Counted from the first letter of the stretch, positions 12,054-61,041 are shown. The stretch is DNA of 64,000 nucleotides from a virus (UHGV-0076294), one strand, 5' to 3'. Translations and numbers: made by a program. Notes: generated by a model not told the origin, from the letters alone.

Positions 12054-12088
12054 CCCTACTCCCGGAGGAGTAGGGTTAATTCTTTTTC
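12054..12088 (+). terminator. intrinsic terminator (CCCTACTCC family)
   Basis: CCCTACTCC-cgga-GGAGTAGGG followed by TTAATTCTTTTT. Confidence 0.7.
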
Positions 12089-12106
12089 CATCTTAGGAGT
12101 ATTAAA

Positions 12107-12655
12107 ATGTTTCCATCATCTGAATATTTAACCCACCTGGCTTACGGTATTCGTCGAGGTTCTGTTTTCCGTACACGTTTAAAGGACGTAAATTTCCTGG
12201 CTAATTTCTTATTTAACCATTTGGGAGATGGAACTAACGTTTACAAAAAGATCACCACAACACAACTTTATTCCCTTATAGCGGCGTCTGAAATTGTACC
12301 TACAGATATTTGGCGATTCAAGCGTTATAACGGAGATATTACGATCAGTTTTCTTGATCATTCTCCTATTACCGTTGAAATCGTCGAACGCGTTGATATT
12401 AATAGTGAAGTGTCTGGTTGGAAGATTCTGTTTGATTGTGGCAATCGTTATGCGGTACTTGGCTCCTCTGATGAACGTGACTTCCCATTCGACAAACCCT
12501 ACTACTACCTCAGCGAAGATGATTTCCCGGATAAAGAATCCAATATCTTTTTAAACGGGGATACCGTTTACTTCATTTTTCGTACTTGGAACGATGTTGC
12601 TGCTATGATTGCTCAAGGTGTCATCGATTACCGTAAACTAGAAGTCGACATTTAA
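12107..12655 (+). CDS. hypothetical protein (paralogue of 11110-12045)
   Basis: 182-aa ORF; RBS TAGGAG; shared motifs with upstream gene. Confidence 0.6.
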   Translation: MFPSSEYLTHLAYGIRRGSVFRTRLKDVNFLANFLFNHLGDGTNVYKKITTTQLYSLIAASEIVPTDIWRFKRYNGDITISFLDHSPITVEIVERVDINSEVSGWKILFDCGNRYAVLGSSDERDFPFDKPYYYLSEDDFPDKESNIFLNGDTVYFIFRTWNDVAAMIAQGVIDYRKLEVDI

Positions 12656-12666
12656 AATAAAAGCTA

Positions 12667-12702
12667 CCCTACTCCTTTTCGGGAGTAGGGTAATTTCTTT
12701 TA
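12667..12702. terminator. bidirectional intrinsic terminator (CCCTACTCC family)
   Basis: CCCTACTCC-ttttcg-GGAGTAGGG flanked by T-run on plus strand and A-run (T-run for minus strand) between convergent genes. Confidence 0.7.
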
Positions 12703-13323
12703 GTTAACTAACCCGTTAGCTTTAAGAATCTCTAACATCTGGTTGTTTAACTCTTTTAATTTTTTGTTTTCGTTTGTCAACGAAGTAACTTGTTCTGACA
12801 ACGGAATAGCCTCTCGAATTTTCCTTTTCCGAGCCGCTTCCATTTGCAGGTGTTGCTCCTCCGTCACTTTCCCTTCATACTCCATGGTCGTGATTTCGAC
12901 TTTCGGGTCGATACCCAACGTACGGGTAAGAATATCCGAAACGTCTTTAGTCATCACCGACACATCTACATAATCCGGTACAAACGATAAGTCCACCACC
13001 ATCACATTACGCTGGTACGCGATTCCCGATAAACCGGGGCACGATTCTACGTAAGTGTCGGGGATATAAACGACTTGACCATCGCGTGATTTAAACGTAA
13101 GTATTGACGCGTTAACAGTGGCATCAGCAAGATATTCTTCTCGCTCCAACCCAACGGGCTTGTAATACTCGTTGTAAACATCAATATTCTGACGTACTAA
13201 ATCTGGGAAGGTACGTGATGCCTCCACCGTGAAGATAACCGTTTCGGCTAACGTAAACGGTGTTTTTACCTTAAATAAACCCGTTGTGTTAACGGGAACC
13301 AAAAGAGGTAAACGCGTAGCCAT
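12700..13323 (-). CDS. hypothetical protein
   Basis: 207-aa ORF on minus strand, 3 nt downstream of the preceding minus-strand gene. Confidence 0.55.
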   Translation of the reverse strand: MATRLPLLVPVNTTGLFKVKTPFTLAETVIFTVEASRTFPDLVRQNIDVYNEYYKPVGLEREEYLADATVNASILTFKSRDGQVVYIPDTYVESCPGLSGIAYQRNVMVVDLSFVPDYVDVSVMTKDVSDILTRTLGIDPKVEITTMEYEGKVTEEQHLQMEAARKRKIREAIPLSEQVTSLTNENKKLKELNNQMLEILKANGLVN

Positions 13324-13326
13324 TCA

Positions 13327-14697
13327 TTACTCCTCGTCGATTTCAGTGTACCATTTCGCTTTACGAGACAGTATGCGATATTCGACGTTATCGTATTCAA
13401 ACACCCAGAAGTAGTTATCGGGATCAGCTTCATCAACGAGTTTCACGACATCCAGACTGGTCTGGTACGGATGGTATTCTTCCGCTGCTATTAGTGCCTG
13501 GAAGAACAATGCTAACCACTCGGTGGTGGATTTTGACATTCGTGCAATGTCTGGGTTCGTTGTTGCAATCAGTGCGTAGTCTGGTAACGTCTCGTGTAAG
13601 GTATTCTTACGAGTGTCGTTCTCAGGGCCACTGATAACCACCATGTTCAGCGATTTATACACGGTAGGTAAATCGGTAACATCCGTTGTCGGTTTGCTTA
13701 CCGTATTACTATTTCTTTCTGCAACAGACTGATCAGACCATTCCCCAAACTTTGTAATGGCTTTGACCCAGAAATCATATGGAAGGATGGGGGAATAGAG
13801 AGCCGCCACGTCTTCCTCATTCGGTATACCACGGATTTTCCACCCCGGAACCATTGTGAATTTCGTAGTGGTAAAGATCTCAGGGAATACCTTCACCCCA
13901 ATCGGAACCGTAAAGCTGGAGTTTGCAAGAATATGTTCACGCAACGCTTGCTTTATTTTCGTTGGGTTTTTTCCTGCACGTCCGTAAATGATAACCGACA
14001 TTGGAACAACCAGTGTTGACTCGTAGTTTTCTTGGTCATGCCAGGTGTAGTAGTTAGTTTGGATGGCAGTATACGGGAACCCTGCCATTAACTCGTTGAT
14101 TTTCTTATGGTGTTCGGTAAGGTTAAACCCTTCCATCGCTTTTTCAACGACTGACTTTGTGGCCAAGAATGTGTCGATTGGCTCAATCGGCATCTGTACT
14201 TCGATTTCAAAACCCGTGTAGTCCTGGTCGAAGTCTTCATCCGAGAACCAAACTATGATTTGGTTATCTACATCAGTGTCATCTTGTACTTGATCTGCTG
14301 TTGCTTCATATTTCCAGCTCACCCAACGTGGGAACCAGTTACTGTTCGTCTGGATCATCGCACCGGACTGAACACCGGAAATGGTTGTTTGGAATTGACC
14401 TAATAATAGGCGCTGGAATTCAAGTTCGTCATTTCTCAGATTCCCCAAGATGGCTTGCTGGTAAATCCATTGAGAAACGGTTAGAATATGATCAGAAAAC
14501 TCGGCTGGAACAACAACCGTCTGTTTTTCTCGTTTAGACGTAAATGTCACCAACTGCACTTGCAGATTGGATTTAGTAAACGTCTGTTTACTCTTCGCGT
14601 ACGAGAGGGTCAGATCAGACAGCTCACCTACCGGAGCGGTGACGCCGTCCTGATTGTCAAACAGAGCCGGTATCTGAATAAAACCTTGTAAGTCTAA
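13327..14697 (-). CDS. hypothetical protein
   Basis: ORF track gives 13327-14760; ATG at 14697 (MLDLQG...) has a GGAG RBS whereas 14760 has none. Confidence 0.55.
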   Translation of the reverse strand, partial: LDLQGFIQIPALFDNQDGVTAPVGELSDLTLSYAKSKQTFTKSNLQVQLVTFTSKREKQTVVVPAEFSDHILTVSQWIYQQAILGNLRNDELEFQRLLLGQFQTTISGVQSGAMIQTNSNWFPRWVSWKYEATADQVQDDTDVDNQIIVWFSDEDFDQDYTGFEIEVQMPIEPIDTFLATKSVVEKAMEGFNLTEHHKKINELMAGFPYTAIQTNYYTWHDQENYESTLVVPMSVIIYGRAGKNPTKIKQALREHILANSSFTVPIGVKVFPEIFTTTKFTMVPGWKIRGIPNEEDVAALYSPILPYDFWVKAITKFGEWSDQSVAERNSNTVSKPTTDVTDLPTVYKSLNMVVISGPENDTRKNTLHETLPDYALIATTNPDIARMSKSTTEWLALFFQALIAAEEYHPYQTSLDVVKLVDEADPDNYFWVFEYDNVEYRILSRKAKWYTEIDEE

Positions 14698-14725
14698 CAT
14701 AATTAAAAATACTCCGAGGTGAGCA

Positions 14726-15688: not shown

Positions 15689-15693
15689 CAACG

Positions 15694-15735
15694 CCTCCTG
15701 TATCCTTCGGGGTACAGGAGGTATTTTCTTTTTAA
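15694..15735 (+). terminator. intrinsic terminator
   Basis: CCTCCTGTATCC-ttcg-GGGTACAGGAGG hairpin followed by TATTTTCTTTTT. Confidence 0.6.
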
Positions 15736-18729: not shown

Positions 18730-19467
18730 ATGTTGAAAGTTTATGTCCCTCAATTACAACGTATTAATCCCTCGTTGTTCGAGGGATTCTTTTATAAAAT
18801 TTGGCCACAATACTTCAATGAACACCTGAAAGACTCAAAATGGTCATCTGTCCAAGGAGAATTCTTTTACACCGCACAATCAGCCTGTACAAATGTCTTT
18901 ACCCACCTCATCTCTGAGGTTATTGACGCTGTCAACACCAACCGAAACTTTGACCTTCGTGACGTCATAATAGATCTCTCAGCGATCTTCGATAACTACG
19001 ATTGCGATGACGCAGTATTCGAACATTTCTCCTCTGAAGATGTGTGGGAGGCCGTTTATCAATGGCTAGAATACTACGTGAATTTTCTACTTTCCTCGAA
19101 CATGTTAGAAAATTACAATAAAGCACTCTTTCCCATTTATAACGACTTAATGAACGTTAAACTGACAAAGAATCTCGTTGGTTTTTGGTATTCGACCTAC
19201 GACGCTGAAAGCAGGTTGTGGGAAAAAGAAATGATCGCTTACGGCATCGAGCGCGGCGATTATGATGAATTATATCGATGTTATTGGCCATTCAATCATT
19301 ACGAAAAAGGGTGTCAAGGCGATCCGTATTTGTGGTCTTTTTATTTCTGTAATCAGACTGGTGTTATTTATCTTGAAGACACCGGTGTACGAATCCCTAA
19401 CGGTACTGATGTAACATACTGCCAATTACGTAAAGACCGGGCTGACGCCATTTATCAGGATTATTAA
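18730..19467 (+). CDS. hypothetical protein
   Basis: 245-aa ORF; RBS CTCGGAG region upstream. Confidence 0.55.
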   Translation: MLKVYVPQLQRINPSLFEGFFYKIWPQYFNEHLKDSKWSSVQGEFFYTAQSACTNVFTHLISEVIDAVNTNRNFDLRDVIIDLSAIFDNYDCDDAVFEHFSSEDVWEAVYQWLEYYVNFLLSSNMLENYNKALFPIYNDLMNVKLTKNLVGFWYSTYDAESRLWEKEMIAYGIERGDYDELYRCYWPFNHYEKGCQGDPYLWSFYFCNQTGVIYLEDTGVRIPNGTDVTYCQLRKDRADAIYQDY

Positions 19468-19468: not shown

Positions 19469-20011
19469 ATGAAATTACTTATCGATTTTTCTCTGAGTTC
19501 GTCACGCGACAGGCTAAATAAAATACTTACTGAAATGCGAAGTAAAGTGACGTTAGAATTGCACGATGCGATAGCGGTATACGAGAGAAAGCTAACGAAA
19601 GAGAACAACGGGGAGACCGTGGTGATCTTAGACGCTAAAGCGATGGTGGATTTTCTGGTAGACGTTTTAGAAAGACGGATACACGCAGTGATAGAACGAC
19701 CCTACCTGGTTCGTGTGACCGACCCAGACACTACGGTAGATTCGATACTGGAAAAAGCATTCGTTGACGCAGCACACTATTTACAAAATCATTCCCCAGA
19801 CGATTTCGAAACGATTTACGTTGGTGTTATACAGCAACAGAATGCTGAAACCAACATAGTCGATACTGTGTGCTGGAGCGATATTCTTACTAATGAAACC
19901 ATGTCTCGCATTCGAGATATCTTTATTGAAAATTTGGCATTAGTAAAAAGGGTGTGTAGTTCCGAGATTATTTATTTATCATCGAAATACGAAAAACCTA
20001 AAGGGGTATAA
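19469..20011 (+). CDS. hypothetical protein
   Basis: 180-aa ORF starting 1 nt after previous stop. Confidence 0.55.
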   Translation: MKLLIDFSLSSSRDRLNKILTEMRSKVTLELHDAIAVYERKLTKENNGETVVILDAKAMVDFLVDVLERRIHAVIERPYLVRVTDPDTTVDSILEKAFVDAAHYLQNHSPDDFETIYVGVIQQQNAETNIVDTVCWSDILTNETMSRIRDIFIENLALVKRVCSSEIIYLSSKYEKPKGV

Positions 20012-20013
20012 CC

Positions 20014-20538
20014 ATGGATATTTTAATTCAGCTTCGTAAGAAAACAACCATTGCCACGCCGATAGCGTTAGAGGAGAAAATCTCTGGCGCGGTTGCACGC
20101 AAGCTCTGTGGTGCTCACGGCTTTAGCAGTCATCAGGAACAGGTCGTTACTGCCGCCACATTACACAACTTACGGCACACAGTACATTACTGTTTAGCTG
20201 ACAACGTCACCATCACTCTTGATGATGGCGCAGCAGCCGACCAACTGCGTCGTGAAATTGACCACAAGATCGGCGTTTATAAAAGACGTTTTGATCGTGC
20301 CTGTGCACGTTTAACCGATGACAAGGAATTATGGAAACGTTTGAAACTTGAAATTGAGTATGCGGCGCAGCGTTACGGGATTGGCGGTACCGAACCGTTG
20401 CTGTCCGAACAAGAAATCATGTTAGCAATCGAAGTTTACATCACCGTTTGTATCGCCATCCTGAAAGAAACCGACTACGAAATTACAAAAGCGTTGTTAA
20501 ACACCGCAGACAGACTCACCCCAATTTTAGGACAGTAA
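20014..20538 (+). CDS. hypothetical protein
   Basis: 174-aa ORF; AAAGGGG RBS. Confidence 0.55.
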   Translation: MDILIQLRKKTTIATPIALEEKISGAVARKLCGAHGFSSHQEQVVTAATLHNLRHTVHYCLADNVTITLDDGAAADQLRREIDHKIGVYKRRFDRACARLTDDKELWKRLKLEIEYAAQRYGIGGTEPLLSEQEIMLAIEVYITVCIAILKETDYEITKALLNTADRLTPILGQ

Positions 20539-20539
20539 A

Positions 20540-21025
20540 ATGAACTTAAATGCAATTATCAATCTCTCTAATAGCGACATTGTCCACGAGTTTCTGAACC
20601 ACTGCGATCGCACAGAACAGTCTATCCGTAACATGTTAGCTCCGAAAACAGTGGATGCCATTTGGATAGCTTCACAGGCAGCGGGCGTTATCGTTGCAAG
20701 ATATCGCGCGACATTACTAATGAGTCTGGACATTTTCTTCGATCGACCAGGGCCTATTACATGGACTTCTATCGGACGTCGGCTTTATGACATACGTATC
20801 GAAACCCTACGCTCGATAATTAATGGCTGGCACAACGGGTATATGCCTGACGTAATAGTACCCTACACTGTTCCCGAATGGCGACGCTTTTATAGTCAGA
20901 TTTGGAGTAATGAAAGCGTTTATCATGAAATAGTGGCTCTTATCAGTGCTGACCAAAGCCAACTTGCATACCAGCTATGGGAGTGGCTAAAAGCTAATTA
21001 TCCTGATTACGTCAAAATCGACTAA
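20540..21025 (+). CDS. hypothetical protein
   Basis: 161-aa ORF starting 1 nt after previous stop; terminator follows. Confidence 0.55.
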   Translation: MNLNAIINLSNSDIVHEFLNHCDRTEQSIRNMLAPKTVDAIWIASQAAGVIVARYRATLLMSLDIFFDRPGPITWTSIGRRLYDIRIETLRSIINGWHNGYMPDVIVPYTVPEWRRFYSQIWSNESVYHEIVALISADQSQLAYQLWEWLKANYPDYVKID

Positions 21026-21030: not shown

Positions 21031-21065
21031 ACCCTAGCTTCGGCTAGGGTTACTTTATTTTTAAC
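21031..21065 (+). terminator. intrinsic terminator
   Basis: ACCCTAGC-ttcg-GCTAGGGT followed by TACTTTATTTTT. Confidence 0.65.
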
Positions 21066-21084: not shown

Positions 21085-22017
21085 ATGTATTTGTACAAAA
21101 GTAAAAAAGTAAAAGGTATTAAAGACTGCCTTAGACAAATGGGGAGTCAGCATCTAGAAAATGTCATGGAAGAAAATCAAACAAAAGAAAATCCTGTCTC
21201 GAAATGGATAAAAAAGAATCGTAATCATCTAACCAATAGCTTTATACCGTATAATGAAGATTTAGGTCTCAAAGATCCACGTTCCCTTCACGCTCAAACA
21301 TTGGCAATTGGATGGCTATACGGCGGGGCTTCCTTAATATCCGATCGAGCACTTAGAGAACTTGTTTTTGAGACTGAGATGCCCAGTAAATTCCCTGAAG
21401 AATGGTTGGACTTTATACCTACTTGGACTGTGGCAATCGATGTAGGTAAAGAGGATGAGACTTTCTTTCTCGGTTATCGAAAAAATGGGAAGAGAAGGTT
21501 TATTATAATTGCTACAAATACTGATTACGGGTTAACAGAAGGCGTTACCACGATTGCCACTTGTTCGTTAGAGCTTCGTAGTGCAGGAAACGGACTTGTG
21601 GAAATCGACTATGCCGACGGTGTGGAGAACGAACAAGAAAAGATGCTATGGTTATCTCTGGCCAAAGCCGCCACATCGATGATATTTCTGTGTACGCTAA
21701 TCCCACCTAATCTCAAAACGTCTTACAATGACGTTAAGTTCAAAGAAATCAAAAAGAACGGCAGTATTAGCTACGAAGTCAAACCTCGTGAACGTGATGT
21801 TAAAGTGGATATCACACCAGGACAAGTAAAATATCTAAAAGGATTTAACACCGACTTGAAAGCCATGCAGGGTATCAAACACGCTAAAGCTGCGCACATT
21901 CGTCGTGCCCACTGGCGTAGATACTGGGTTGGTCCAAGAAACGGTGAAAGAAAAAGAAAACTTTGCTGGATTCCACCGACATTTGTTCGCGGCTACGTAC
22001 CCCACACGCAAGACTAG
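21085..22017 (+). CDS. hypothetical protein (paralogue of 22028-22912)
   Basis: C-terminus AAHIRRAHWRRYWVGP...WIPPTFVRG nearly repeats in next gene; RBS TAGGAG. Confidence 0.6.
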   Translation: MYLYKSKKVKGIKDCLRQMGSQHLENVMEENQTKENPVSKWIKKNRNHLTNSFIPYNEDLGLKDPRSLHAQTLAIGWLYGGASLISDRALRELVFETEMPSKFPEEWLDFIPTWTVAIDVGKEDETFFLGYRKNGKRRFIIIATNTDYGLTEGVTTIATCSLELRSAGNGLVEIDYADGVENEQEKMLWLSLAKAATSMIFLCTLIPPNLKTSYNDVKFKEIKKNGSISYEVKPRERDVKVDITPGQVKYLKGFNTDLKAMQGIKHAKAAHIRRAHWRRYWVGPRNGERKRKLCWIPPTFVRGYVPHTQD

Positions 22018-22027
22018 GAGAATTATA

Positions 22028-22912
22028 ATGTTAAGACGCAGAATTTATGGAGACACGCTTCGACGTATTAGTGAAGCTATAGAGACTGCACACAAAGACT
22101 TGTTTGGTCTGAAGGAAGATCGTTTTCTAACGTTTGTCAGGGAACACAAGAGGCAACTTCCTGTAACCTTTCTGCCCGTTAACGACCCAACGTACCGTGT
22201 GTTCGGCACCACCAAACAGGTGCCGTATTCTATTCGCCAATCGTTAGGTTTGGGCTGGCAATACGCAGGTATTGAAATTATCTCTGATAAAGAGTTGATG
22301 GGACTACTTGCAGACACAGAACGTTTAACGGATATTCCGTACGCGTGGATTGAAGCAATTCCTTCATTCACCTTTTCCGTGACTGTAAAGATTAACGAAC
22401 TACCCGCTACGCTCTTTATCGGTCGTCGTAAATTCGAAGGTGAGGAAGTATTGTTCGTTTTACGATGGGTGGAGATAAATCAGCGGCACTGTTGGTCAAC
22501 CAAGATTTATCGGTTCAACAGAAAGGCAGATGACTTTGTTAGTTTAGAGCCTTACTTTGCTAACGAGTCAAAGGACGAGGAACTTCTGGATGAGGTACAT
22601 ATCGGTTTATATCTTTCCTCGCGGGTGAAGAAATCGGAACGCGAGAGACGGGAATACCGTGGTAGAACGACACGTTACGTACCTGATACAGAAATCCTCC
22701 CACGCAGAGAACCTGTCGTCGTTGACGTAAGTCCAGTACAACGCGAAGACTTAGAAAAACAACGCAGGGAAGGCAGGAGAATCTGTTTAACGCCTCATCG
22801 CGCAGCACACATACGCAGGGCTCATTGGAAACGGGTCTGGTGTGGGCCAATGACAGGACCACGCTGGCAGGAGTGGCGATGGATTGCACCCACCTTTATA
22901 TCTGGTTTTTAA
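22028..22912 (+). CDS. hypothetical protein (paralogue of 21085-22017)
   Basis: Start set at ATG 22028 after AGGAGAA RBS (ORF track 21905 overlaps upstream gene); C-terminus AAHIRRAHWKRVWCGP...WIAPTFISG. Confidence 0.6.
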   Translation: MLRRRIYGDTLRRISEAIETAHKDLFGLKEDRFLTFVREHKRQLPVTFLPVNDPTYRVFGTTKQVPYSIRQSLGLGWQYAGIEIISDKELMGLLADTERLTDIPYAWIEAIPSFTFSVTVKINELPATLFIGRRKFEGEEVLFVLRWVEINQRHCWSTKIYRFNRKADDFVSLEPYFANESKDEELLDEVHIGLYLSSRVKKSERERREYRGRTTRYVPDTEILPRREPVVVDVSPVQREDLEKQRREGRRICLTPHRAAHIRRAHWKRVWCGPMTGPRWQEWRWIAPTFISGF

Positions 22913-22927
22913 TGTGAAAATAAAGAT

Positions 22928-22975
22928 TACCCCTAGACCACAAGGTCTAGGGGTAGCTTTTACTTTTTATTTTTT
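22928..22975. terminator. bidirectional intrinsic terminator
   Basis: TACCCCTAGACC-acaa-GGTCTAGGGGTA flanked by T-rich runs for both strands, between convergent genes. Confidence 0.65.
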
Positions 22976-23722
22976 GTTTGCCTTCAGCGCTTTCAGGCGT
23001 TCAGCCGTCACGTTCAGACATTCAATCAATTCGTTCACCTGTTTCATGAACAAACCAAACAGTTCAACCCAATCGGATGCAAAGTCTAACATCGCTGTCA
23101 GTTCTTTTGCCACGTTAGGATGAATGTTTTGTTCAGACAGAATCGTTGCAGAGGCTTTAATAGACTCGATGGATTTGTCGATGTTCGTACGAAGTTTCTT
23201 CGTGATTTCAACGTTCAGTGCTTTTGCACGGTTAAACGCAATATCGATCTCCGTAGCACTGTGGTACGTTTTCTCAATCGGACGCTGGTCAATAACGTTG
23301 TTGATGTAAGACTTAGCCAACTGGTTAACCAGGTCTTTCGGATTCACGTTACGTAACGGAATGTTAACGTTTTTATAACGGAAACCGATAGGTAATGACA
23401 GTACGCCCACATCATGTGTAAGGGCGGAAAGTTGCAACTCAACAGGTAAAAGGACACCGTCGTAGATCTTCTGTAATGAACTCCATACCGATTCTAAGCG
23501 GTTAATGTGATCCATTACGTAGGTATTGAAGCCTGGCGGTACAATAACCAACATGCCTGCAAAGTGTAAGAATTTTTCCTGTTGCATCCACTTGGAAACG
23601 TCTGACATGTCGTCGTAAGTGGTTAATGCAATCTCTTGTTGAGGGCCACTGAACCCTTTGGGTAAGATTGCAGACGCTTTAGCGGCAAAGCTAGTTAACG
23701 CTGCAAGTGGATTTACGTTCAT
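22967..23722 (-). CDS. hypothetical protein
   Basis: Lone minus-strand 251-aa ORF inside a plus-strand block; own terminator and divergent upstream region. Confidence 0.55.
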   Translation of the reverse strand: MNVNPLAALTSFAAKASAILPKGFSGPQQEIALTTYDDMSDVSKWMQQEKFLHFAGMLVIVPPGFNTYVMDHINRLESVWSSLQKIYDGVLLPVELQLSALTHDVGVLSLPIGFRYKNVNIPLRNVNPKDLVNQLAKSYINNVIDQRPIEKTYHSATEIDIAFNRAKALNVEITKKLRTNIDKSIESIKASATILSEQNIHPNVAKELTAMLDFASDWVELFGLFMKQVNELIECLNVTAERLKALKANKK

Positions 23723-25631: not shown

Positions 25632-25676
25632 AGTCGTTAGGGTAGGGTAATCCCCTACCCTAGCTAAGGAGTCGTT

Positions 25677-30504: not shown

Positions 30505-31326
30505 ATGTCCGAACCACAATTACTGCGCTCCGTATTAAAGAAAATCAAAAGTCAAAGTGAAGACATTCAATCACTGGCTTTAACGCTCGGTTATGCGCCG
30601 GGTGACTTACGTTCTAAATCCTACGTGAACGCGTCAAGCATTGTACTCACGCCTGATGAGCTCCTTGCTTATGTCCTATACCTGAGACGGTTAGGCTATG
30701 TTTGTGCTTTACCTGAACAACTCCCGTTTACCGATGGGGTGAACCACATCAACTTTTACTCCAACGGTCGTACTACCGTGGGTAAGATGATCAGTAACTT
30801 CTACGCGAAACCTGACGGGTCAAAATTCGACACGATACACGGTCAGTTCCTGACGTTAGAAGGTTACTATCACTACTTGCGTATCGTTGACTACATGTTA
30901 CACATGGGTTACTCGATTAAAACGATGGGACGTCTGGAGACTGAATTTCCTGATATTCTTCGTTTACGTACGTTAACGGGTGCTGAGTGTATTCAGTTAG
31001 GTCGTCGATTAAAAGCGGCAATTTACGGGAAAACGGATTACCGTCCCGGTGAGTTTAGTAGCTACGCGACTGGCGCATTTAAGAATGCGCTGCTGCGTAA
31101 GTTGCACCTGTTGCAATACGACGGGTCTTGTTTAGGTAATACCCTGTCTTACTGCCATTCGATGAATCTTCCGTTCTTGCATTATTACGTCATGAACGGT
31201 CGGGTGATTACACCACCACATTCTGAATGGCTTCCTAATCTGGTGGTTTCTATTGTTGAAAACATCGACTATAACGACTCGACGTTCGATATTACGGACG
31301 TCAGTGAACGTATGGGATTAATCTAA
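30505..31326 (+). CDS. hypothetical protein
   Basis: Start set at ATG 30505 after AAGAGG RBS (ORF track 30463 lies inside previous gene). Confidence 0.5.
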   Translation: MSEPQLLRSVLKKIKSQSEDIQSLALTLGYAPGDLRSKSYVNASSIVLTPDELLAYVLYLRRLGYVCALPEQLPFTDGVNHINFYSNGRTTVGKMISNFYAKPDGSKFDTIHGQFLTLEGYYHYLRIVDYMLHMGYSIKTMGRLETEFPDILRLRTLTGAECIQLGRRLKAAIYGKTDYRPGEFSSYATGAFKNALLRKLHLLQYDGSCLGNTLSYCHSMNLPFLHYYVMNGRVITPPHSEWLPNLVVSIVENIDYNDSTFDITDVSERMGLI

Positions 31327-31985
31327 TGGGATTGTTCGATACCCTAGCGCGGCTGGATAAAGCGCAGGAAGAAGAAATCATTCGTGTTGCTGGTGAGTCC
31401 ATTAAACACGAAGTCGAAAAGGAATACTGCGTTTGGGTAAAACCTACGCAAGCGGGATGGGATTGGCTCCACGCACAAGAAGCCAAGATGTTCATGGACA
31501 TTCTCATGCCGATAGAAGGTGGGCGTCGTCGTATCCGTATTAAAGAAGACGGTACGGCACAGCTAACGCTTAAGCGTAAGTTCCAGGACGGAAAGGTTGA
31601 AGAGAATTCGGATATCGGTATTAGTTCCGCACTCTCTTTTTACAAAGACGGTTATTTGGCACACCTGGTGAAACGTATTCACTTAGAGCCGGGTGAATTA
31701 GCCGAGAAAGGGGCTAAGCATTGGGATATTGATATTTTCACTATCACCACCGGACACCCTGCCATTGAAGTTTCAGCTGACTTTAACGATCTCATCACCG
31801 AGATGCGTAGTAGCACCAGCGTTGGTGACTGGGTGAAAGTTGAACTGGAAGTCGAACGTTACGAGATTGCAGATGTGCTGTCTGTAATTCCGTTTGAGTT
31901 TGACGGCCATATTCCGGCTACGCCGAAAGATCCTGAAGACCAAGAATATCTTCGTGATTACTGGGATTCAGTTACCCGTATGTAA
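31326..31985 (+). CDS. CYTH-like (triphosphate tunnel metalloenzyme-like) protein, tentative
   Basis: Pattern HEVEKEY, then RRRIRIKEDGTAQLTLKRK, then KVELEVERYE resembles CYTH hallmarks (ExExK; RxR...LTxK; ExE). Spacing of first motif imperfect. Confidence 0.4.
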   Translation: MGLFDTLARLDKAQEEEIIRVAGESIKHEVEKEYCVWVKPTQAGWDWLHAQEAKMFMDILMPIEGGRRRIRIKEDGTAQLTLKRKFQDGKVEENSDIGISSALSFYKDGYLAHLVKRIHLEPGELAEKGAKHWDIDIFTITTGHPAIEVSADFNDLITEMRSSTSVGDWVKVELEVERYEIADVLSVIPFEFDGHIPATPKDPEDQEYLRDYWDSVTRM

Positions 31986-31991
31986 CACCTA

Positions 31992-32028
31992 CCCTACTCC
32001 CAGACAGGAGTAGGGTATTTTCATTTTT
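31992..32028 (+). terminator. intrinsic terminator (CCCTACTCC family)
   Basis: CCCTACTCC-cagaca-GGAGTAGGG followed by TATTTTCATTTTT. Confidence 0.7.
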
Positions 32029-34852: not shown

Positions 34853-34859
34853 GGGGTAC

Positions 34860-35156: not shown

Positions 35157-35190
35157 GGTTATTTCGCTTGTAGTTAAAAGGAACATTGAA

Positions 35191-35637: not shown

Positions 35638-35655
35638 TCAGTGGGGGTTAGTTCT

Positions 35656-37292: not shown

Positions 37293-37338
37293 ACCTACCT
37301 CCTTTCGGAGGTAGGTTAACTTTCTTATTTTTTCTTTT
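37293..37338. terminator. bidirectional intrinsic terminator (ACCTACCTCC family)
   Basis: ACCTACCTCC-tttc-GGAGGTAGGT flanked by A-run upstream and long T-run downstream, between convergent genes. Confidence 0.7.
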
Positions 37339-47337: not shown

Positions 47338-48963
47338 GTGAATAAACTTAATTGGGTTGACTTTTATCTGCTCAATGTAAACAAGTCTCTTGTGTCGCGA
47401 TTACGACCCGTCACGACCACAGATACTTTTCAAGGGTTGACAAAAAACTTTCACCCTGAAGGGTTGTACTCCACGGAGATTTTCGGTCTTACGGGAAGTG
47501 AAGCCCGAGACTCAACGTTTTCTTACATTGATATTAAATTAGATATCATTTCGCCGACGGTGTGTTTGGCGTTATTCCAACTAAAACAACTCTACGAAGA
47601 AATTTGTTCTGGAAAACGCTACGCAACCTGGAACGAAAAAGAAAAAGATTTTGAACCGGCTTTGCCTGGCGACGCTGGCGCAGATACCGGTTTTAACTTT
47701 TTCCTTAGTCACTACAACGACTTAAAACCCGGACGTAACGAATCGTTACAACGTGACGAAACGGTGGATTTCTTCGAGAAGTTCCGTCCCGTGAGTCTTA
47801 GCCGCTATGTTCTCGTATTACCCGCGGGTTTACGTGATTTGGTGGTTAGACAAGACGGTAGGGAACAGGAAGAGGAAATCGGTGGGTTATATCGTCGTTT
47901 GATTTCTTTGGCCAGGGCGATTCCTGACCGTGCTACACGGGTTGAATTAACGAACCCTGTGCGATGGAAACTCCAACAAACCTTTAACGAAATCTGGATG
48001 TACTTCTTTAACATCCAGGACGGTAAAGGAGGTTTCCAACGTCGTAAAGTGACGTCGCGTAAACTGATGAACGGGACACGTAACGTATTGTCCTCATTCT
48101 CCACAGGCTCTAAATGCATGGGGCGTGAGGATGCGATTCGACCGACCGACACCAAAATTGGTTTGTATCAGGGTCTGAAAGCGTTGCTACCTGTTGCGCA
48201 ATACCAGATACGTGAACGTTACCTCGGTAACATTCGTGCTGGCGATGGCAACCTTTATGGCGTAAACACCAAAACGCTTAAACGCGAGTTCTTGGAGGTT
48301 GGGGGTCGTGTTTACGACACCTTTACCACAGACGACGGTATCGAAACATTAATTAACCGGATGGAAGCTCGCGAGCTTCGTCATCAACCGTTAATGATTA
48401 ACGATACCCATTACGTCGCACTGGTCTACCAAGACAACAAACATTTTAAGGTGTTCTACGATATCGATGAACTGCCTAAAACGTTTGACCGTAAAAACGT
48501 CCACGGAATGACCCTGGTAGAATTACTCTACTTATCGGGTTACGAACTGTGGAACAACTATTTCGGTTTCGTTACGCGTTATCCCGTCACCGGTCGAGGC
48601 TCGACGTACTCATCGACCATAAGATTGGAGACCACCACGTCATCTTTATACCTAAAAGAACTGGAAGATGACTGGGAGACTGAAAAGCCACACGGAGCTA
48701 TCAGTTATCCTGACAGGTCGGTTCCAACCTTTGTTGAGTCGATGGCACCGCACCCGTCACGATTGGGTGGCTTAGGGGGTGACTACGATGGTGACACCGG
48801 TTCACTTAACGCGCCTATGTCGCAAGAAGCACTCGAGGAAAACCGTAACTGGATACACTCGAAGAACTACTGGTTCGATTCTGACGGGAATTTCAAAATC
48901 AATCCTGTCAACAACGTGATTAAACGTGCGACGCAAGCGTTATTAAAGAATCCAAAAGGCTAA
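47338..48963 (+). CDS. RNA polymerase beta-prime-like subunit, N-terminal fragment type, tentative
   Basis: GTG start after AGGAGA RBS. C-terminal ...TRYPVTGRG...APHPSRLGGLGGDYDGDTGSLNAPMSQEALEE parallels beta-prime NRAPTLH...LHP...[23 protein letters not shown]; motif position (~485 of 541) matches E. coli beta-prime (~460). Confidence 0.5.
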   Translation: MNKLNWVDFYLLNVNKSLVSRLRPVTTTDTFQGLTKNFHPEGLYSTEIFGLTGSEARDSTFSYIDIKLDIISPTVCLALFQLKQLYEEICSGKRYATWNEKEKDFEPALPGDAGADTGFNFFLSHYNDLKPGRNESLQRDETVDFFEKFRPVSLSRYVLVLPAGLRDLVVRQDGREQEEEIGGLYRRLISLARAIPDRATRVELTNPVRWKLQQTFNEIWMYFFNIQDGKGGFQRRKVTSRKLMNGTRNVLSSFSTGSKCMGREDAIRPTDTKIGLYQGLKALLPVAQYQIRERYLGNIRAGDGNLYGVNTKTLKREFLEVGGRVYDTFTTDDGIETLINRMEARELRHQPLMINDTHYVALVYQDNKHFKVFYDIDELPKTFDRKNVHGMTLVELLYLSGYELWNNYFGFVTRYPVTGRGSTYSSTIRLETTTSSLYLKELEDDWETEKPHGAISYPDRSVPTFVESMAPHPSRLGGLGGDYDGDTGSLNAPMSQEALEENRNWIHSKNYWFDSDGNFKINPVNNVIKRATQALLKNPKG

Positions 48964-48966: not shown

Positions 48967-51900
48967 ATGCTGCTCATTAAACAGTTTAACCAACGCTTCT
49001 CTGTGCGTAAAACAGACGAGTTTGGTAATCCGAGGATTATCCCGCTCGAGAAGCTCCAGATACCACGAGGCTCTATACTGCACGTCGTGGATCTCGATCA
49101 GGTGGTCTTAGCGCCACCTGCTACGCTGGAAATCATCCAGCCGTTGGAAAAACCTGCACAAATTCGCCACCACTTTAAACTTCCCGAAGAAGGGATCAGT
49201 GGGCATCCACGTAACAAACCTGTGCAGGGGCAAGAACGTGCTATCTTTGCGTACCATCGCGCTAACCGTCCAATTCGTCGCCTGACTTCAGACGACCTGA
49301 TTCGTAAAGACTTAAAAGTTCTCCTTATCGAGAACTACACACCGATGTTATCGCATTACTACTATCCAGACACTCAGTTAGCCTGGTACGATAGACTGCG
49401 TAACATCCAGCTGTTAATGACTAACCAGTTCAAATACGACACGCAAGAATACATGCGTCAAAACTACTTCGTGATTGAGCTGGGGTCAACGTTACCGTCT
49501 TTCCAGAAGTTCCAAACGACGTATAACGATCGTGTTAAAAGCAAGATTGAAAAGTTCCAGGACTTTAACCTGTTGTGGTTATTGGAACTGTTCGCTTGGG
49601 CATACGGTAAACAGTCCGATTCTCTGTTTGCAGGAATGGACTTAACGCAACTGTCTCGAATGAACTTCATCTTCACCCACAACAGCGGCTTTACGTCGAT
49701 GAACATGGGTGTCGTGGAGAAGATGCGTAAATCGTCCGGTGGTCGTTTAAGTGACGATCAAATGGCCAGGATGTTCTATCGTACGTTAGTGCGTGTAATG
49801 ACACAAGCACCGTCTAATGCGTACGAAGCTGAATTCCTGACACCGGAAGGTGATGAACGTATCTTTGTTAAGGACATCGAAGAGGATACCGTTGACGTCG
49901 TTGACGATACAGACGTTGTTAACGACGCTGTGGTTGAATCGGATAACGCTTTCGATGAAAAAGAAGACCTCGTTATTGAGGAGCCGAAAGAAGACGTTAA
50001 GCCGACGACTATCGTTATCGAAAAAACGATTGCTCACGATGACATTATCAAACAGGAAGCGCAGAAACTGGCTGAGGCGGGCCGCTTAAGCTCCAAAGCG
50101 TATCAGTTCCTGTCTGATTCGACCAAACGTTTCGTTCAGTTACCAAACCCGTACAACCCGAAAGAGACTTACGGCGAAGCATTAACCATTCACGAAAAAG
50201 ACATTGCCGTGAAAGCGGAACCGAAGAAAGTCCAGCGACTGGTTACGGATGAAGGTTGGGCAGAAAACGTCACCGACCAAATGGTGAAACAATACAACCA
50301 GACCATGATGAGTAAAGACGTGCTGGCAGCAGTCGCCAGCTCGCAGCGTCTTGGTTTGGCTATTCACAACCACACGATCGAGAAAGAGATTTCCGTTACG
50401 GGAACTATCGAACACCACACCCTGCGAGTTCAACCGATTGGTGGTGAACCGACGACAGTGCGTTTCTCTATCCCTGGTTTAACCGAAGACGGTACCTGGG
50501 TAGCAAACGGTGTTGAATACACCATGCGTCGTCAGCGTGTAGACGTGCCGATTCGTAAGGTCGCCCCAGACACCGTAGCGTTAACTACCGCTTACGGTAA
50601 AAACTTCGTACGTCGTAGTGACAAAGTCGCAAACGACTACGGCCGTTGGTTAACGAACGCGATTATCACGCGTGCCGTAGACCCGACCAACACGGAGATC
50701 ACAGACGCACGACTCGCGAACGTTTTCGATCCTACTGAGAAACTTCCTCGTCAGTACACGGAGATTGCACGTCGTATCGCCAGCTTCAATGCAGGCGGGT
50801 ATATGTGGAACTTCGATTATAAAGAAGCGGTTAACTTCTTTAATGACGAACAACTTACTGACGCAAATAACGTTGAGATGTTGCCGGTTGCGAAACGTCC
50901 GCGCAGTGAAGTTATTGTGGTGATGGATACCAAGTCCATGCTCTATACCGTTAAAGGTAAAGAGTGTACACCACTGGGTACCATCTTGGAAGTGCTTGGT
51001 TTCAGTAGCCAGAAAGCGCCAAGAGAAATGACTGAGCTTTCACTGATGGGCAAATCGCTCTCACTGGGCTTCATCTTCTCGTTCTATTTAGGTCTGCAAG
51101 GGATGCTTAAACATTTCGGCATTCAGTACGAAATCGTCCCTGTTGGCCAACGTGTAGATAAGAGCACGTACGATTCTATTATTCGTCTCCAGGACAGTAA
51201 GTTCCTGGTAACGTGTGATAACGATCAGCAACGAATGATTCTACACGGTCTGGATAAGTACCTGAAACACCTGGTGGCTTATACCGAGTCCGAAGTCGAC
51301 CGCGAAGACATTTACCTGAACTTAATACGTGATGCAGATGGGCTAACCCCACGCTACATCAACGAGCTGAAACAAATGCGGGCCGCGTTTGTTGATGACA
51401 TGCACGCACGTATCCTCAGGAAAATGGGTGAACCGGAAACCTTTATCGGGCTATTGGAACGTTCTAACGAACTGTTACAAACCGACCACTCTTTACCGGA
51501 GATTAACGGTGATGAGATGATGTTCTTAGGGAACCAACGTATTTCCTACCACATCTACACTGCGATGGTCAGGGCGATGCGTAACTACAACAACGCACCG
51601 AACAGTAACCGTAAGTTCGAGCTTACTCAGGACATGATTTGGGGCGCAATTAACTCCGACCCGTCTGTTCTGTTAGCGCCGGGTGCTAACCCTATCCAGT
51701 CGATTAAAGAGAAAGACGTTATCACCATGGGGGGTACGGGCGGCCGTAACCGTAAAACAATGGTTTATCACACGCGTGAGTTCCAACCGAGTGACCTGGG
51801 TATTGTTTCCGGTAACACGGTGGATAACGGTGATGTAGGTATTACTGCTTTCGCCACTAACAACCCACGTTTCGATACCGTTGACGGCACAACCTATAAA

Positions 51901-53133
51901 CGGGATGAAAAGAAACTGAAACCGAGCGACACTCTGTCATTTATTGACGGTCTCGTGCCGGATACCCTGATGGATGACGCTAAACGTCAAAACTTCGTTG
52001 GGATTCAGTTAGGTTCTGCCACCAGTTGCAACGGCGCTACCACTACCCCTTATCGTACCGAACAGGAGAAATTTGTCGCTCACCGTACGTCGGTGAAACA
52101 CGCACGCGTTATTGATAAAGCAGGTAAAATCACCGGTCTGTCTAAAGACCATATCGAAATTACGTACGAAGATGGAAGTAAAGAAGCCTTTCCTCTAGGG
52201 CGCTGGTTCGGCCCCCACGAAGGTACCTTCTATCCGCACACCCTGGTGACTCGCTGGAAAGCCGGTGACAAACTCCCGGCCGGGGCAGTCATCACTTATA
52301 ACGAGCAACACTTTGAACCCGATATCTACGACCCTACTCAGGTTTCCTGGAAAAACGGGGTGCTGGCTACCGTCGCTTTAATCGAGGCTGAAGAAGTAAT
52401 CGAAGACTCCAATGCTATTTCTGAACGGTTCGCGAAGAAAATGGTTGGGCAGGTTACTAAGCTGAAAGAAGTGGTGATTAACAGCAACCAGATGCTCCTG
52501 GAAATCGTTAACGAAGGGGAACACGTTGACGTCGACACAATCCTATGCACATTTACTGACGACCTTACGGGGGATATGAGTACCTTTAGTAAGGAAGCAG
52601 CACAAACGTTGCAAAGTTTAAGTTCGTACGCACCTCGTGCTGGGGTTCGTGGTATCGTGGATAAAATCGAAGTCGTGTATCACGGTGAAACCGAAGACAT
52701 GACGCCTTCACTGGCAGAACTGGTACGCAAATACGATCGTATTCGTCGTAAAGCAGCGTTGGCTGTTAATCGTGGCGATCCGGTATCAGGGAGTGTTAAT
52801 GGGGATTACCGTGTAGAGGGTGTACCGTTAGCCTTTAACTCGCTTTGTGTTCGATTCTTTATTACGCACGAAGTTGAAATGGCCGCAGCGGATAAGATGG
52901 TTATTGCTAACCAGCTGAAAACCACTGTACAAGAAGTGATGTACGGGGAAAACAAAACAGAAGATGGCGACGACATTGACATTTTGTTCGGTCGTGATTC
53001 TGTCGACGCACGTATTGTAGGTTCTATCCAACGAATCGGTACCGCAAATGCTGTGGGTGAACAAGCAGGGATTCTTATCGGTCGTATTCTCGACGGCGAG
53101 TCCGTGCCTGAGTTACCAGCGACACTTAAATAA
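48967..53133 (+). CDS. large hypothetical protein (1388 aa), possibly another RNAP subunit or virion protein
   Basis: Starts 3 nt after the beta-prime-like gene; acidic low-complexity insert (DTVDVVDDTDVVNDAVVESDNAFDEKEDL); no canonical beta or beta-prime motif recognised by eye. Confidence 0.6.
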   Translation: MLLIKQFNQRFSVRKTDEFGNPRIIPLEKLQIPRGSILHVVDLDQVVLAPPATLEIIQPLEKPAQIRHHFKLPEEGISGHPRNKPVQGQERAIFAYHRANRPIRRLTSDDLIRKDLKVLLIENYTPMLSHYYYPDTQLAWYDRLRNIQLLMTNQFKYDTQEYMRQNYFVIELGSTLPSFQKFQTTYNDRVKSKIEKFQDFNLLWLLELFAWAYGKQSDSLFAGMDLTQLSRMNFIFTHNSGFTSMNMGVVEKMRKSSGGRLSDDQMARMFYRTLVRVMTQAPSNAYEAEFLTPEGDERIFVKDIEEDTVDVVDDTDVVNDAVVESDNAFDEKEDLVIEEPKEDVKPTTIVIEKTIAHDDIIKQEAQKLAEAGRLSSKAYQFLSDSTKRFVQLPNPYNPKETYGEALTIHEKDIAVKAEPKKVQRLVTDEGWAENVTDQMVKQYNQTMMSKDVLAAVASSQRLGLAIHNHTIEKEISVTGTIEHHTLRVQPIGGEPTTVRFSIPGLTEDGTWVANGVEYTMRRQRVDVPIRKVAPDTVALTTAYGKNFVRRSDKVANDYGRWLTNAIITRAVDPTNTEITDARLANVFDPTEKLPRQYTEIARRIASFNAGGYMWNFDYKEAVNFFNDEQLTDANNVEMLPVAKRPRSEVIVVMDTKSMLYTVKGKECTPLGTILEVLGFSSQKAPREMTELSLMGKSLSLGFIFSFYLGLQGMLKHFGIQYEIVPVGQRVDKSTYDSIIRLQDSKFLVTCDNDQQRMILHGLDKYLKHLVAYTESEVDREDIYLNLIRDADGLTPRYINELKQMRAAFVDDMHARILRKMGEPETFIGLLERSNELLQTDHSLPEINGDEMMFLGNQRISYHIYTAMVRAMRNYNNAPNSNRKFELTQDMIWGAINSDPSVLLAPGANPIQSIKEKDVITMGGTGGRNRKTMVYHTREFQPSDLGIVSGNTVDNGDVGITAFATNNPRFDTVDGTTYKRDEKKLKPSDTLSFIDGLVPDTLMDDAKRQNFVGIQLGSATSCNGATTTPYRTEQEKFVAHRTSVKHARVIDKAGKITGLSKDHIEITYEDGSKEAFPLGRWFGPHEGTFYPHTLVTRWKAGDKLPAGAVITYNEQHFEPDIYDPTQVSWKNGVLATVALIEAEEVIEDSNAISERFAKKMVGQVTKLKEVVINSNQMLLEIVNEGEHVDVDTILCTFTDDLTGDMSTFSKEAAQTLQSLSSYAPRAGVRGIVDKIEVVYHGETEDMTPSLAELVRKYDRIRRKAALAVNRGDPVSGSVNGDYRVEGVPLAFNSLCVRFFITHEVEMAAADKMVIANQLKTTVQEVMYGENKTEDGDDIDILFGRDSVDARIVGSIQRIGTANAVGEQAGILIGRILDGESVPELPATLK

Positions 53134-58118: not shown

Positions 58119-58158
58119 GGGTAGTCTATCCAGTGGATAGACTACCCTACCTATTTTT
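58119..58158 (+). terminator. intrinsic terminator
   Basis: GGGTAGTCTATCCA / TGGATAGACTACCC inverted repeat followed by TACCTATTTTT. Confidence 0.6.
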
Positions 58159-58176
58159 AACCCTATTGAAAAATAT

Positions 58177-58201
58177 CTTAGATATATATTACTTAGGTGA
58201 G
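58177..58201 (+). promoter_or_regulatory. phage promoter-like motif CTTAGATATATATTACTTAGGTGAG
   Basis: 24 of 25 nt identical to 952-976; 51 nt upstream of ATG 58253; conserved ACTTGTTAACC box in the leader of both copies. Confidence 0.45.
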
Positions 58202-58642: not shown

Positions 58643-58643
58643 A

Positions 58644-59726: not shown

Positions 59727-59747
59727 TAACCTGAAGGAATAAAACTA

Positions 59748-60230
59748 ATGGCTAAAGTAACTTCTATCAAAGACCTGGCTGCAATGATCGATGCACTGGA
59801 AACTCCGGCAATGACCATGAACGACGACCTGGTGGTCAACGCTGACCCGATGGTAAAAATTTATGAAGAAACGCTGCCGGTTATCAAAGTTAACGATACT
59901 GACTATCGCTTAACGCTGAAAGACGCCGACGCGGTTCGTCAACACGATGCTAACTTCCTGGAAGTGTACGGGAAAGTCGCTTCTGGTCTGATTGTGGAAA
60001 AAGCGAAAGCCGATGCTGAGATGGCCGCGATGAACATCACCACCGAAATCGGCAACGCATCGTTCTCCACGGTGTTCTCTCGCCCGACCGGGGACACCAT
60101 CAGCCAGAAAGAATGGGCTGCATCCATCGGTTTCGGTTACGGTGTGCCGAAGTCTAAAGCACTGGAAGGCAAACTTCGTAAGCAATTCGCTGCGGACATG
60201 ATGGCTTCCGATGACGAAGACGACGAATAA
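59748..60230 (+). CDS. hypothetical protein with acidic C-terminal tail
   Basis: 160 aa; strong RBS GAAGGAATAAAA; ends MASDDEDDE. Confidence 0.55.
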   Translation: MAKVTSIKDLAAMIDALETPAMTMNDDLVVNADPMVKIYEETLPVIKVNDTDYRLTLKDADAVRQHDANFLEVYGKVASGLIVEKAKADAEMAAMNITTEIGNASFSTVFSRPTGDTISQKEWAASIGFGYGVPKSKALEGKLRKQFAADMMASDDEDDE

Positions 60231-60239
60231 GGTTGCGAT

Positions 60240-60386
60240 ACTCGGAGGGAAGGTAAAACATACCTATATCCCTCCTACACCGATTAACCCTACGGCCTGG
60301 CAGAATCCACTCTCCAGAACGCTAGGGTTACCTAAACCGATTGACGGTTTGGTGTATCTGTCGCATCGACGGAGAAAATAAAAGTT
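60240..60386 (+). ncRNA. structured non-coding region, candidate small RNA or structured 3' UTR
   Basis: No ORF; nested hairpins (GGAGGGAAGGTA...TACCT..TCCCTCC; TAACCCT...AGGGTTA; AAACCG-attga-CGGTTT) immediately upstream of a terminator. Confidence 0.25.
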
Positions 60387-60416
60387 AAGGCGGTTTTATG
60401 ACCGCCTTATTTTTTT
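60387..60416 (+). terminator. intrinsic terminator
   Basis: AAGGCGGT-tttatg-ACCGCCTT followed by ATTTTTTT. Confidence 0.7.
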
Positions 60417-60434
60417 GATCTCAGGAGATATAAA

Positions 60435-60995
60435 ATGTCAAACCCTAACCTTTTTGGTGGGCCTGTTACGCCAGGACATCAGATTGTCGACGATGTAAAA
60501 CCGTTACCTAACGTCATGACGCGTACTGAGGTTATTAATCGCCTAAACCAAATCGGTGAAGTTTTTACACTGTCAATGAAATCTGTGTTGGAAGATGCGT
60601 TCCCACACATTGCAGGCTGGCCTGCTGAAACCATCCCCCACACCATCAACGGGTACCAACGTTTCCTGACTGAAATCAGATCAACGGCTTCGGGTAACAT
60701 TATCGCCGGTTTTGTTATTCGTTTCAAACAGTTACTGTTAATCGAATTCGGTAAAGACGTTATCGATTCCCTTGAACGTGAACTGGTTTCGTTACACGAC
60801 AACGAAATCGTACGTAACGAAAAAGGTGAGGGTTCCAACGGATTAACACTGTGGAAACTCGCTTATCCTGACGATATCACCAACACCCCACCGACCACTT
60901 ACGATTTAATTTCAACCTTCCTGTTGTTGATGCAGATGAAAAACTTAATCATCCGTGCATCCGCATCGAAAGTCCTAGGAACGGAAGAAAAATAA
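60435..60995 (+). CDS. hypothetical protein
   Basis: 186-aa ORF; CAGGAGAT RBS. Confidence 0.55.
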   Translation: MSNPNLFGGPVTPGHQIVDDVKPLPNVMTRTEVINRLNQIGEVFTLSMKSVLEDAFPHIAGWPAETIPHTINGYQRFLTEIRSTASGNIIAGFVIRFKQLLLIEFGKDVIDSLERELVSLHDNEIVRNEKGEGSNGLTLWKLAYPDDITNTPPTTYDLISTFLLLMQMKNLIIRASASKVLGTEEK

Positions 60996-61000
60996 AAAAG

Positions 61001-61041
61001 TACCTACCTCCATTACGGAGGTAGGTAAACTTATTTTTTTC
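61001..61041. terminator. bidirectional intrinsic terminator (ACCTACCTCC family)
   Basis: TACCTACCTCC-attac-GGAGGTAGGTA flanked by A-run and T-run between convergent genes; same stem as 37293-37316. Confidence 0.7.

Follow-up and report, generated by a model that had tools for sequence, protein, structure and literature searches.

Terminators that share one stem sequence have been described in two jumbo phages with split multisubunit RNA polymerases (RNAPs). ONT-cappable-seq mapped 133 terminators in phiKZ, 61 of which share the motif 5'-BCCYCCCCHWWDGGGRRGGBYTTATKYYGT-3' (Putzeys et al. 2024; PMC10914365). A similar motif A accompanies 59 of the 132 terminators mapped in 201phi2-1, where antitermination has been speculated (PMC11512511). 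Termination by these host-independent phiKZ-like RNAPs is not understood, and the motif has been mapped yet is unexplained. We describe here repeated terminator-like hairpins in a 64,000-nucleotide stretch of DNA, called the window below, from the virus UHGV-0076294. While a conserved terminator motif as such is already published for phiKZ and 201phi2-1, the hairpins of the window follow a different variant, a second consensus, TACCCYACTCC, of which exact copies occur across phage genera and hosts, which is at chance level in bacteria, and which persists where the U-tract is weak. The likeness to phiKZ and 201phi2-1 is close: these are jumbo phages with split multisubunit RNAPs and many terminators per genome built on one stem consensus, with a C-rich pyrimidine 5' arm, a G-rich purine 3' arm and a T-rich tail; frequent TTAT in place of a clean U-run may be a further likeness. 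The differences are that the consensus of the window's clade has an internal TA/CA step where phiKZ has CCYCCCC, that its stems are longer (9-13 bp), and that its loops vary and flip, whereas the phiKZ loop is an A/T-rich tetraloop, HWWD. The phiKZ and 201phi2-1 terminators have been mapped as RNA 3' ends; those of the clade of the window are predicted from sequence. Literature searches found no description of the terminators of SPN3US or of Erskinevirus-type phages, and the exact stem sequences turned up only in unrelated primer or short hairpin RNA papers.

Two other systems invite comparison. The promoter-early stem-loops (PeSLs) of T4-type phages are composite terminator/promoter cassettes that bring about modular gene shuffling (PMC2839356, PMC4122927). 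Like them, the hairpins of the window are multicopy, conserved intergenic stem-loops of a large lytic phage, and they sometimes stand beside genus-variable genes; unlike them, they carry no promoter, and conservation is confined to the stem. With bacterial bidirectional Rho-independent terminators they share a GC-rich hairpin between an A-tract and a T-tract, a location between convergent genes and a folding energy of -16 to -23 kcal/mol, but the bacterial terminators have no stem sequence in common.

Judging from the identity of its RNAP beta subunit and from its synteny with phiEaH2, the window is part of an uncultivated phiKZ-like jumbo phage of ~225 kb with its own split multisubunit RNAPs. 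The open reading frames (ORFs) 47338-48963 and 48967-53133 correspond to the RNAP beta-subunit genes of phiEaH2 and Asesino, with 82-85% protein identity. The second of them (1388 aa) is 82% identical to the beta subunit of the Erwinia phages Asesino, Stratton and phiEaH2, and 77% identical to its counterpart in Salmonella phage SPN3US. The entire window is syntenic with phiEaH2 84.8-153.3 kb, and a megablast search against GenBank phages gave no DNA match. In IMG/VR there are four close relatives: A and D, with ~96-99% DNA identity to the window, and B and C, with ~78-83%. Orthologous hairpin loops were compared between the window and the loci L235-L238 and L289-L292.

The earlier note on this DNA, made from the sequence alone, had reported five hairpins with identical stems, in two families. 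All five lie exactly where it placed them:

12054..12075, + strand, site 1, family 1: CCCTACTCC cgga GGAGTAGGG then ttaattcttttt; -16.4 kcal/mol; between two + strand genes, 8 nt past the stop codon of 11110-12045
12665..12692, site 2, family 1: TACCCTACTCC ttttcg GGAGTAGGGTA, preceded by an A-tract and followed by a T-tract; -22.0 (+ strand) and -22.4 (- strand) kcal/mol; between the convergent genes 12107-12655 (+) and 12700-13323 (-)
31990..32017, + strand, site 3, family 1: TACCCTACTCC cagaca GGAGTAGGGTA then ttttcattttt; -19.4 kcal/mol; 4 nt past the stop codon of 31326-31985, preceding a 4-gene block absent from phiEaH2
37293..37316, site 4, family 2: ACCTACCTCC tttc GGAGGTAGGT; between a MazG-like gene, 36442-37284 (+), and a virion protein gene, 37339-37902 (-)
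61001..61027, site 5, family 2: TACCTACCTCC attac GGAGGTAGGTA; between gene 60435-60995 (+) and the tail tube gene 61042-61917 (-)

The arms CCCTACTCC/GGAGTAGGG are found in the window only at 12054-62/12067-75, 12667-75/12682-90 and 31992-32000/32007-15; counting CCCTACTCC and its complement, there are 6 matches where 0.20 are expected, and none of 100 shuffles reaches 6. Likewise, ACCTACCTCC/GGAGGTAGGT occur only at 37293-302/37307-16 and 61002-11/61017-26, which makes 4 matches with the complement against 0.06 expected. A scan for perfect hairpins extends the stem to 11 bp at 12665-92 and 31990-32017, where it is TACCCTACTCC, and at 61001-27, where it is TACCTACCTCC. All five hairpins begin 4-9 nt after a stop codon. 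On either strand their predicted folding energies lie between -16.4 and -23 kcal/mol, with z-scores relative to shuffles from -2.8 to -6.9. The 12 nt 3' of the stem contain 7-10 T, the T-run itself beginning 3-6 nt downstream. As the earlier note had it, both family 2 sites lie at convergent strand switches; site 2 is also between convergent genes, and at these junctions A-tract, stem and T-tract are arranged symmetrically. The terminator reading put forward in that note is consistent with the stable GC-rich hairpin, the T-rich tail, the position after stop codons and the A/T-tract symmetry. What has to be given up is the notion of two separate families: the exact reuse is real, and both are variants of one clade-wide consensus, as described below.

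To catalogue terminators, hairpins with a perfect stem and a T-rich tail were collected; the window has 13 of them, and the complete genome of phiEaH2 has 49. Under the strictest null, in which every 5' arm was shuffled with its composition kept (5000 shuffles), the window has 4 terminator pairs with a common 9-mer where 0.031 are expected, and phiEaH2 has 10 where 0.19 are expected; in both cases none of the 5000 shuffles reaches the observed count. In both genomes, stems are thus reused more often than chance allows.

Six of the 13 terminators of the window and 18 of the 49 of phiEaH2 have a G-free 5' arm, and these arms show a strong positional consensus. Hairpins of this class pair a 5' arm that is rich in pyrimidines and free of G with a purine 3' arm; the loop between the arms varies, the tail is T-rich, and the hairpins are often bidirectional. 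From base to loop, the consensus of 23 such stems from the window and phiEaH2 reads T-A-C-C-C-Y-A-C-T-C-C; if the pairs are numbered from the loop outwards, C stands at position 1 in all 23 stems and at position 8 in 22. Family 1 is this consensus itself, and family 2 (TACCTACCTCC), equal to it in length and composition, differs by the shift of one C. In phiEaH2 the stem ACCCTACTCC occurs three times, stems of the CTACCCACTCC type four times and TACCTACTCC twice, together with others. The other terminators of the window had been described as unrelated; this is wrong in part, since 10518, 21031 and 22927 have the same CCCTA...TAGGG stem base. The hairpins of the window that share this vocabulary are as follows:

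10518..10545, + strand, member of the class: TGCCCCTAATCC aatc GGATTAGGGGTA then cttttattta; stem word CCCCTAATCC
21031..21050, + strand, related hairpin, invariant in relatives A-D: ACCCTAGC ttcg GCTAGGGT then tactttattttt
22927..22956, apparently bidirectional, member of the class: TTACCCCTAGACC acaa GGTCTAGGGGTAG; stem word TACCCCTAGACC; between the convergent genes 21905-22912 (+) and 22967-23722 (-)
58119..58147, + strand, same words in reversed polarity: GGGTAGTCTATCC agt GGATAGACTACCC then tacctattttt

The tetranucleotide TTAT, within 14 nt of the stem, is found in 21 of 35 tails of the consensus class and in 20 of 35 tails of other terminators; at sites 2, 4 and 5 it is present on at least one strand.

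Outside the window, the exact family 1 hairpin was found at 84 loci of IMG/VR and the family 2 core at 67, with homologs of phiEaH2 proteins at 59 of 84 and 49 of 64 loci, respectively. A scrambled stem of equal composition matched 6 loci, none of which had such homologs (0/6) or was terminator-like (0/6). The IMG/VR matches are mostly in contigs of 210-250 kb, and complete relatives carry 5-6 copies of family 1 and 3-4 of family 2. Among the stem-bearing phages, phiEaH2 and SPN3US were confirmed by protein match, and EL and Vibrio phage VP4B by 100% DNA identity. Further stem-bearing contigs are those we take to be RisingSun, Huxley and CR5, and one more is presumably Vibrio phage pTD1. In EL, RisingSun, SPN3US and VP4B, the words CCCTAC, CCTACC and CTCC also make up other long perfect stems. 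By contrast, 596 Gb of bacterial and archaeal genomes contain the exact family 1 hairpin at 81 loci, which is chance level (~61 are expected from sequence length alone by our own calculation); the loci are scattered over unrelated taxa, and none of the 81 is in the Enterobacterales. The stem therefore marks this group of phages and has not been taken over from their hosts. Mimicry of host terminators was rejected on the same chance-level frequency.

A hairpin of reversed polarity, GGAGTAGGG-loop-CCCTACTCC, was observed at 74 IMG/VR loci (L150-L223), mostly in other, AT-rich phages. About 25 of the 74 are orthologs of one site, with the loops atttaat and attaaat, mutually flipped. Since many of its loci are orthologs of one site, the reversed hairpin is not a clean negative control.

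The five family 1 and family 2 stems are invariant across relatives A-D. Relative to B and C, which are only 78-83% identical to the window in DNA, they are altered at none of the 5 sites, whereas 7 of the 10 other window terminators (4452, 7334, 10518, 15693, 40146, 58119 and 60386) have altered stem bases, always compensated on the other arm (hypergeometric one-sided p = 56/3003 = 0.019). At greater distances the sites drift. At site 5 the stem is TACCT-ACC-TCC in the window, TACCT-CTC-TCC in SPN3US and TACCT-CAC-TCC in phiEaH2, so that the middle covaries (ACC/GGT, CTC/GAG and CAC/GTG, respectively) while TACCT..TCC is kept; this was read from the ortholog sequences, as MAFFT misplaced the 3' arm where loop lengths differ. 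The orthologs of sites 1 and 2 in phiEaH2 have the stems CCCCTACC and CTACCTACTCC, that of site 3 in Asesino is CCCTCTCC ttcg GGAGAGGG, and that of hairpin 22927 in phiEaH2 is CTACCCACTCC. The exception to this drift within the consensus is site 4, whose ortholog in phiEaH2 and Asesino has the unrelated stem CGAGTAGCCC. The exact family 1 copies of phiEaH2 (at 32.8, 38.2 and 236.7 kb) all lie outside the region syntenic with the window; exact copies are therefore at non-orthologous sites, as far as this could be checked, that is, in phiEaH2. The covariation at orthologous stems indicates that base pairing is under selection, and recurrence at non-orthologous sites, together with resistance to change, indicates that the particular consensus sequence is favoured as well. 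Of the two options raised by the earlier note, selection on the stem sequence is the one supported by the clade-wide recurrence, the conservation of consensus copies and the positional consensus.

The loops behave quite differently from the stems. Their sequences are hypervariable, and the loops of two near-identical genomes are in many cases exact reverse complements:

10518: aatc in the window, gatt in the ~98%-identical relative A
12054 (site 1): cgga in the window, tccg in B, C and D, with an identical stem
12665 (site 2): ttttcg in the window, cgaaaa in D
22927: acaa in the window, ttgt in D
31990 (site 3): cagaca versus tgtctg; ortholog loops tagaca, tgacta and tgtctg
37293 (site 4): tttc in the window, gaaa in C and D

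The tree of the relatives needs at least 8 inversion events over 7 hairpins, which points to frequent exchange between hairpin arms at the DNA level, by inversion or template switching, and shows that in the consensus class neither the sequence of the loop nor its orientation is under selection. A second terminator class was also observed, in which a purine-first arm ending in ACC is followed by a ttcg tetraloop, GGT and an immediate T-run, and which is one-directional. Examples are 4452-4473 and 15693-15722 in the window and 3689, 21271, 86801, 88883, 92249 and others in phiEaH2; its arm words, GGAGACC/GGTCTCC, are likewise reused. No flips were seen in ttcg-loop hairpins among the compared orthologs: in the one-directional class, UUCG keeps the direction in which it forms the stable tetraloop.

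We propose that the hairpins are intrinsic-type terminators, forming the 3' ends of RNAs in a phiKZ-like jumbo phage whose transcription relies on its own multisubunit RNAPs. The transcript would fold into a perfect stem of 9-13 bp, with a 5' arm of C, T and A only and a 3' arm of G, A and T only, followed by a U-rich tract; at convergent junctions, the symmetric A-tract/stem/T-tract would stop transcription arriving from either direction. The stems are held to a narrow clade consensus, 5'-(T)ACC(C)YACTCC-loop-GGAGTRG(G)GGT(A)-3'; the phage RNAP, or a factor acting with it, would be what makes this sequence optimal. Identical copies would then be repeated realisations of a selected consensus, as promoters are, and not recent duplications of a cassette. 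We consider this explanation, taken as a whole, probable. Within it, the position and structure of the hairpins suggest that transcription ends there, and the polymerase itself is the preferred candidate for the cause of the stem optimum, ahead of an associated factor.

Several observations weigh against this proposal. The T-run does not follow the stem immediately, as noted above. The downstream gene often begins ~30 nt past the hairpin without a recognisable promoter, which implies read-through, or that the hairpin has another task, for example in stabilising or processing the transcript. Many hairpins built from these words in EL, RisingSun and one uncultivated relative have no T-run at all, so that they may not be purely intrinsic terminators; TTAT is frequent in the EL tails. 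The phiKZ stem-loop CCYCCCCHWWDGGGRRGG, allowing up to 3 mismatches, has 2 hits in the window, neither of them at a hairpin, and 43 of 100 shuffles do as well. Finally, exact copies outnumber what a consensus model with independent positions predicts, which leaves room for some copying.

Such copying could take the form of duplicated terminator cassettes, the other option of the earlier note, or of ectopic gene conversion or recombination between terminators in the manner of PeSLs. Sites 1 and 2 do bound a single orphan gene (12107-12655). The site 4 stem, entirely unlike its ortholog in phiEaH2 and Asesino, is identical to that of site 5, and the flanks of these two sites are partly alike (AAAAGT-stem-AACTT..TTATTTTTT); this replacement is the best hint of occasional conversion. 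Moreover, ~9-10 of the ~20 synteny breakpoints relative to phiEaH2 are at terminators, where ~4.5 are expected, an excess that is itself expected if accessory genes sit between transcription units. However, the copies have in common only the stem and generic A/T tracts: there is no homology past the stem, the loops differ, orthologous sites carry other stems and exact copies are non-orthologous, so that duplication of cassettes is poorly supported. No unaligned break of more than 120 nt between the window and A-D falls within 60 nt of any hairpin, and the enrichment at genus level is weak, which does not suggest a PeSL-like role at junctions. Nor is a unit of promoter and stem seen, sigma-70-like promoters not being enriched (such sites are fewer in the window than in shuffles). 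Exact stems persist across genera and hosts while orthologs drift, which copying within a genome cannot explain. As the general explanation we hold copying to be unlikely, and assign it a minor contribution; the evidence speaks for selection acting on the sequence of the stem more than for duplication in the recent past. Three small gene-sized indels or replacements relative to the closest relatives were recorded (34816-35176, 35638-36185 and 19987-20876), none of them bordered by a hairpin. PeSL-like recombination was rejected at short evolutionary range, where recent indels do not border hairpins. Still less probable, by a wide margin, are selfish palindromic repeats of the REP/BIME or MITE kind, spreading between genes and merely resembling terminators. 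The hairpins are indeed multicopy perfect palindromes confined to intergenic regions, their loops invert frequently at the DNA level, and they contain GTAG/CTAC, a tetranucleotide that is also typical of REP elements. Yet the annotation of phiEaH2, with 262 features, includes no transposase, relatives have the hairpins at stable, orthologous positions, and the hairpins all lie just past stop codons, with T-rich tails, in only ~10 copies per genome. Chance coincidence, by which low-complexity C-rich stems alone would give identical arms, has practically no probability left: a G-free 5' arm is a reduced alphabet in which coincidence is likelier, but the composition-preserving arm shuffles in the window and phiEaH2, and the scrambled control (6 IMG/VR loci against 84 and 67), refute it.

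A dedicated factor is another alternative to the polymerase itself. The stem would then be the sequence-specific site of a phage protein, be it a termination or antitermination factor, a nuclease or an mRNA 3'-end binder. The stem is kept across phages of Erwinia, Salmonella, Cronobacter, Vibrio and Pseudomonas hosts, even without a T-run, and consensus copies are conserved more than other terminators, as such a site would be. On the other hand, the loops are hypervariable and flip, perfect RNA helices are poorly read by proteins, and loop lengths of 3-9 nt speak against a dimer bound to double-stranded DNA; a candidate protein was not identified, and isolated half-sites are at chance level. 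We regard a factor of this kind as quite improbable. The broader proposition, that the phage RNAP or a dedicated factor recognises the CCCTAC/CCTAC-type stem as a sequence-specific 3'-end signal, and that this signal is kept across phiKZ-like phages of Erwinia, Salmonella, Vibrio and Pseudomonas even without a U-tract, is somewhat less doubtful but still unlikely. If it were true, these phages would possess a private code for termination and mRNA fate (termination, stabilisation, transcript handling) that is independent of the host machinery; if the stem is not read specifically, they have ordinary terminators with an unusually narrow consensus. The second consensus gives a defined pair of sequences for testing whether termination by these RNAPs depends on stem sequence, and it is also a simple genomic marker for annotating the transcription units of the clade.

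Other candidates were considered. Single-arm matches in the window (up to 1 mismatch) are at chance level, and a complementary single-arm RNA partner in the window, acting in trans, was rejected as isolated half-sites are no more frequent than chance. Mimicry of the Shine-Dalgarno sequence or its complement, suggested by the 5' arm ACCTCC, which is like the 16S rRNA end and pairs with GGAGG of the 3' arm, was set aside: the downstream starts are ~45 nt off and have Shine-Dalgarno sequences of their own. The Rfam covariance models gave no match at gathering score over the whole window.

The gap of 4-9 nt between stop codon and hairpin is shorter than the footprint of a terminating ribosome. This would be no problem if transcription were not coupled to translation, as is the case in jumbo phages that form a nucleus. 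ORF 12107-12655 (182 aa) has family 1 hairpins on both flanks and occurs only in the four closest relatives; searches of phiEaH2, Pfam and PHROGs gave no homolog. This orphan gene thus fills a slot bounded by terminators.

Other elements were observed near hairpins. AT-rich promoter-like motifs, AAAAATAATCTCAGATATA (945-961) and ATTGAAAAATATCTTAGATATAT (~58158-58182), stand ~25 nt past the hairpins 899-918 and 58119-58147, each preceding a gene without a phiEaH2 homolog. They resemble a sequence, ..TT[C/G]AGATAGA, that follows family 1 hairpins both in phiEaH2 and in the contig taken as Huxley; in a pattern search the motif was not above chance. At 25638-25662, the same words make up a hairpin of reversed polarity, TAGGGTAGGG taatc CCCTACCCTA. 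It lacks a T-tail, and 3 nt separate its end from the Shine-Dalgarno sequence (aaggag) of the gene that begins at 25677; its role may be in stabilisation or translation and not in termination. Finally, the hairpin at 18766-18788, AATCCCTCG ttgtt CGAGGGATT then cttttataaa, lies inside the 5' end of ORF 18730-19467 and hardly varies, even where the overall identity of a relative is only ~78%. An attenuator within the gene is one possible reading; alternatively, the start codon of this ORF may have been mis-called.

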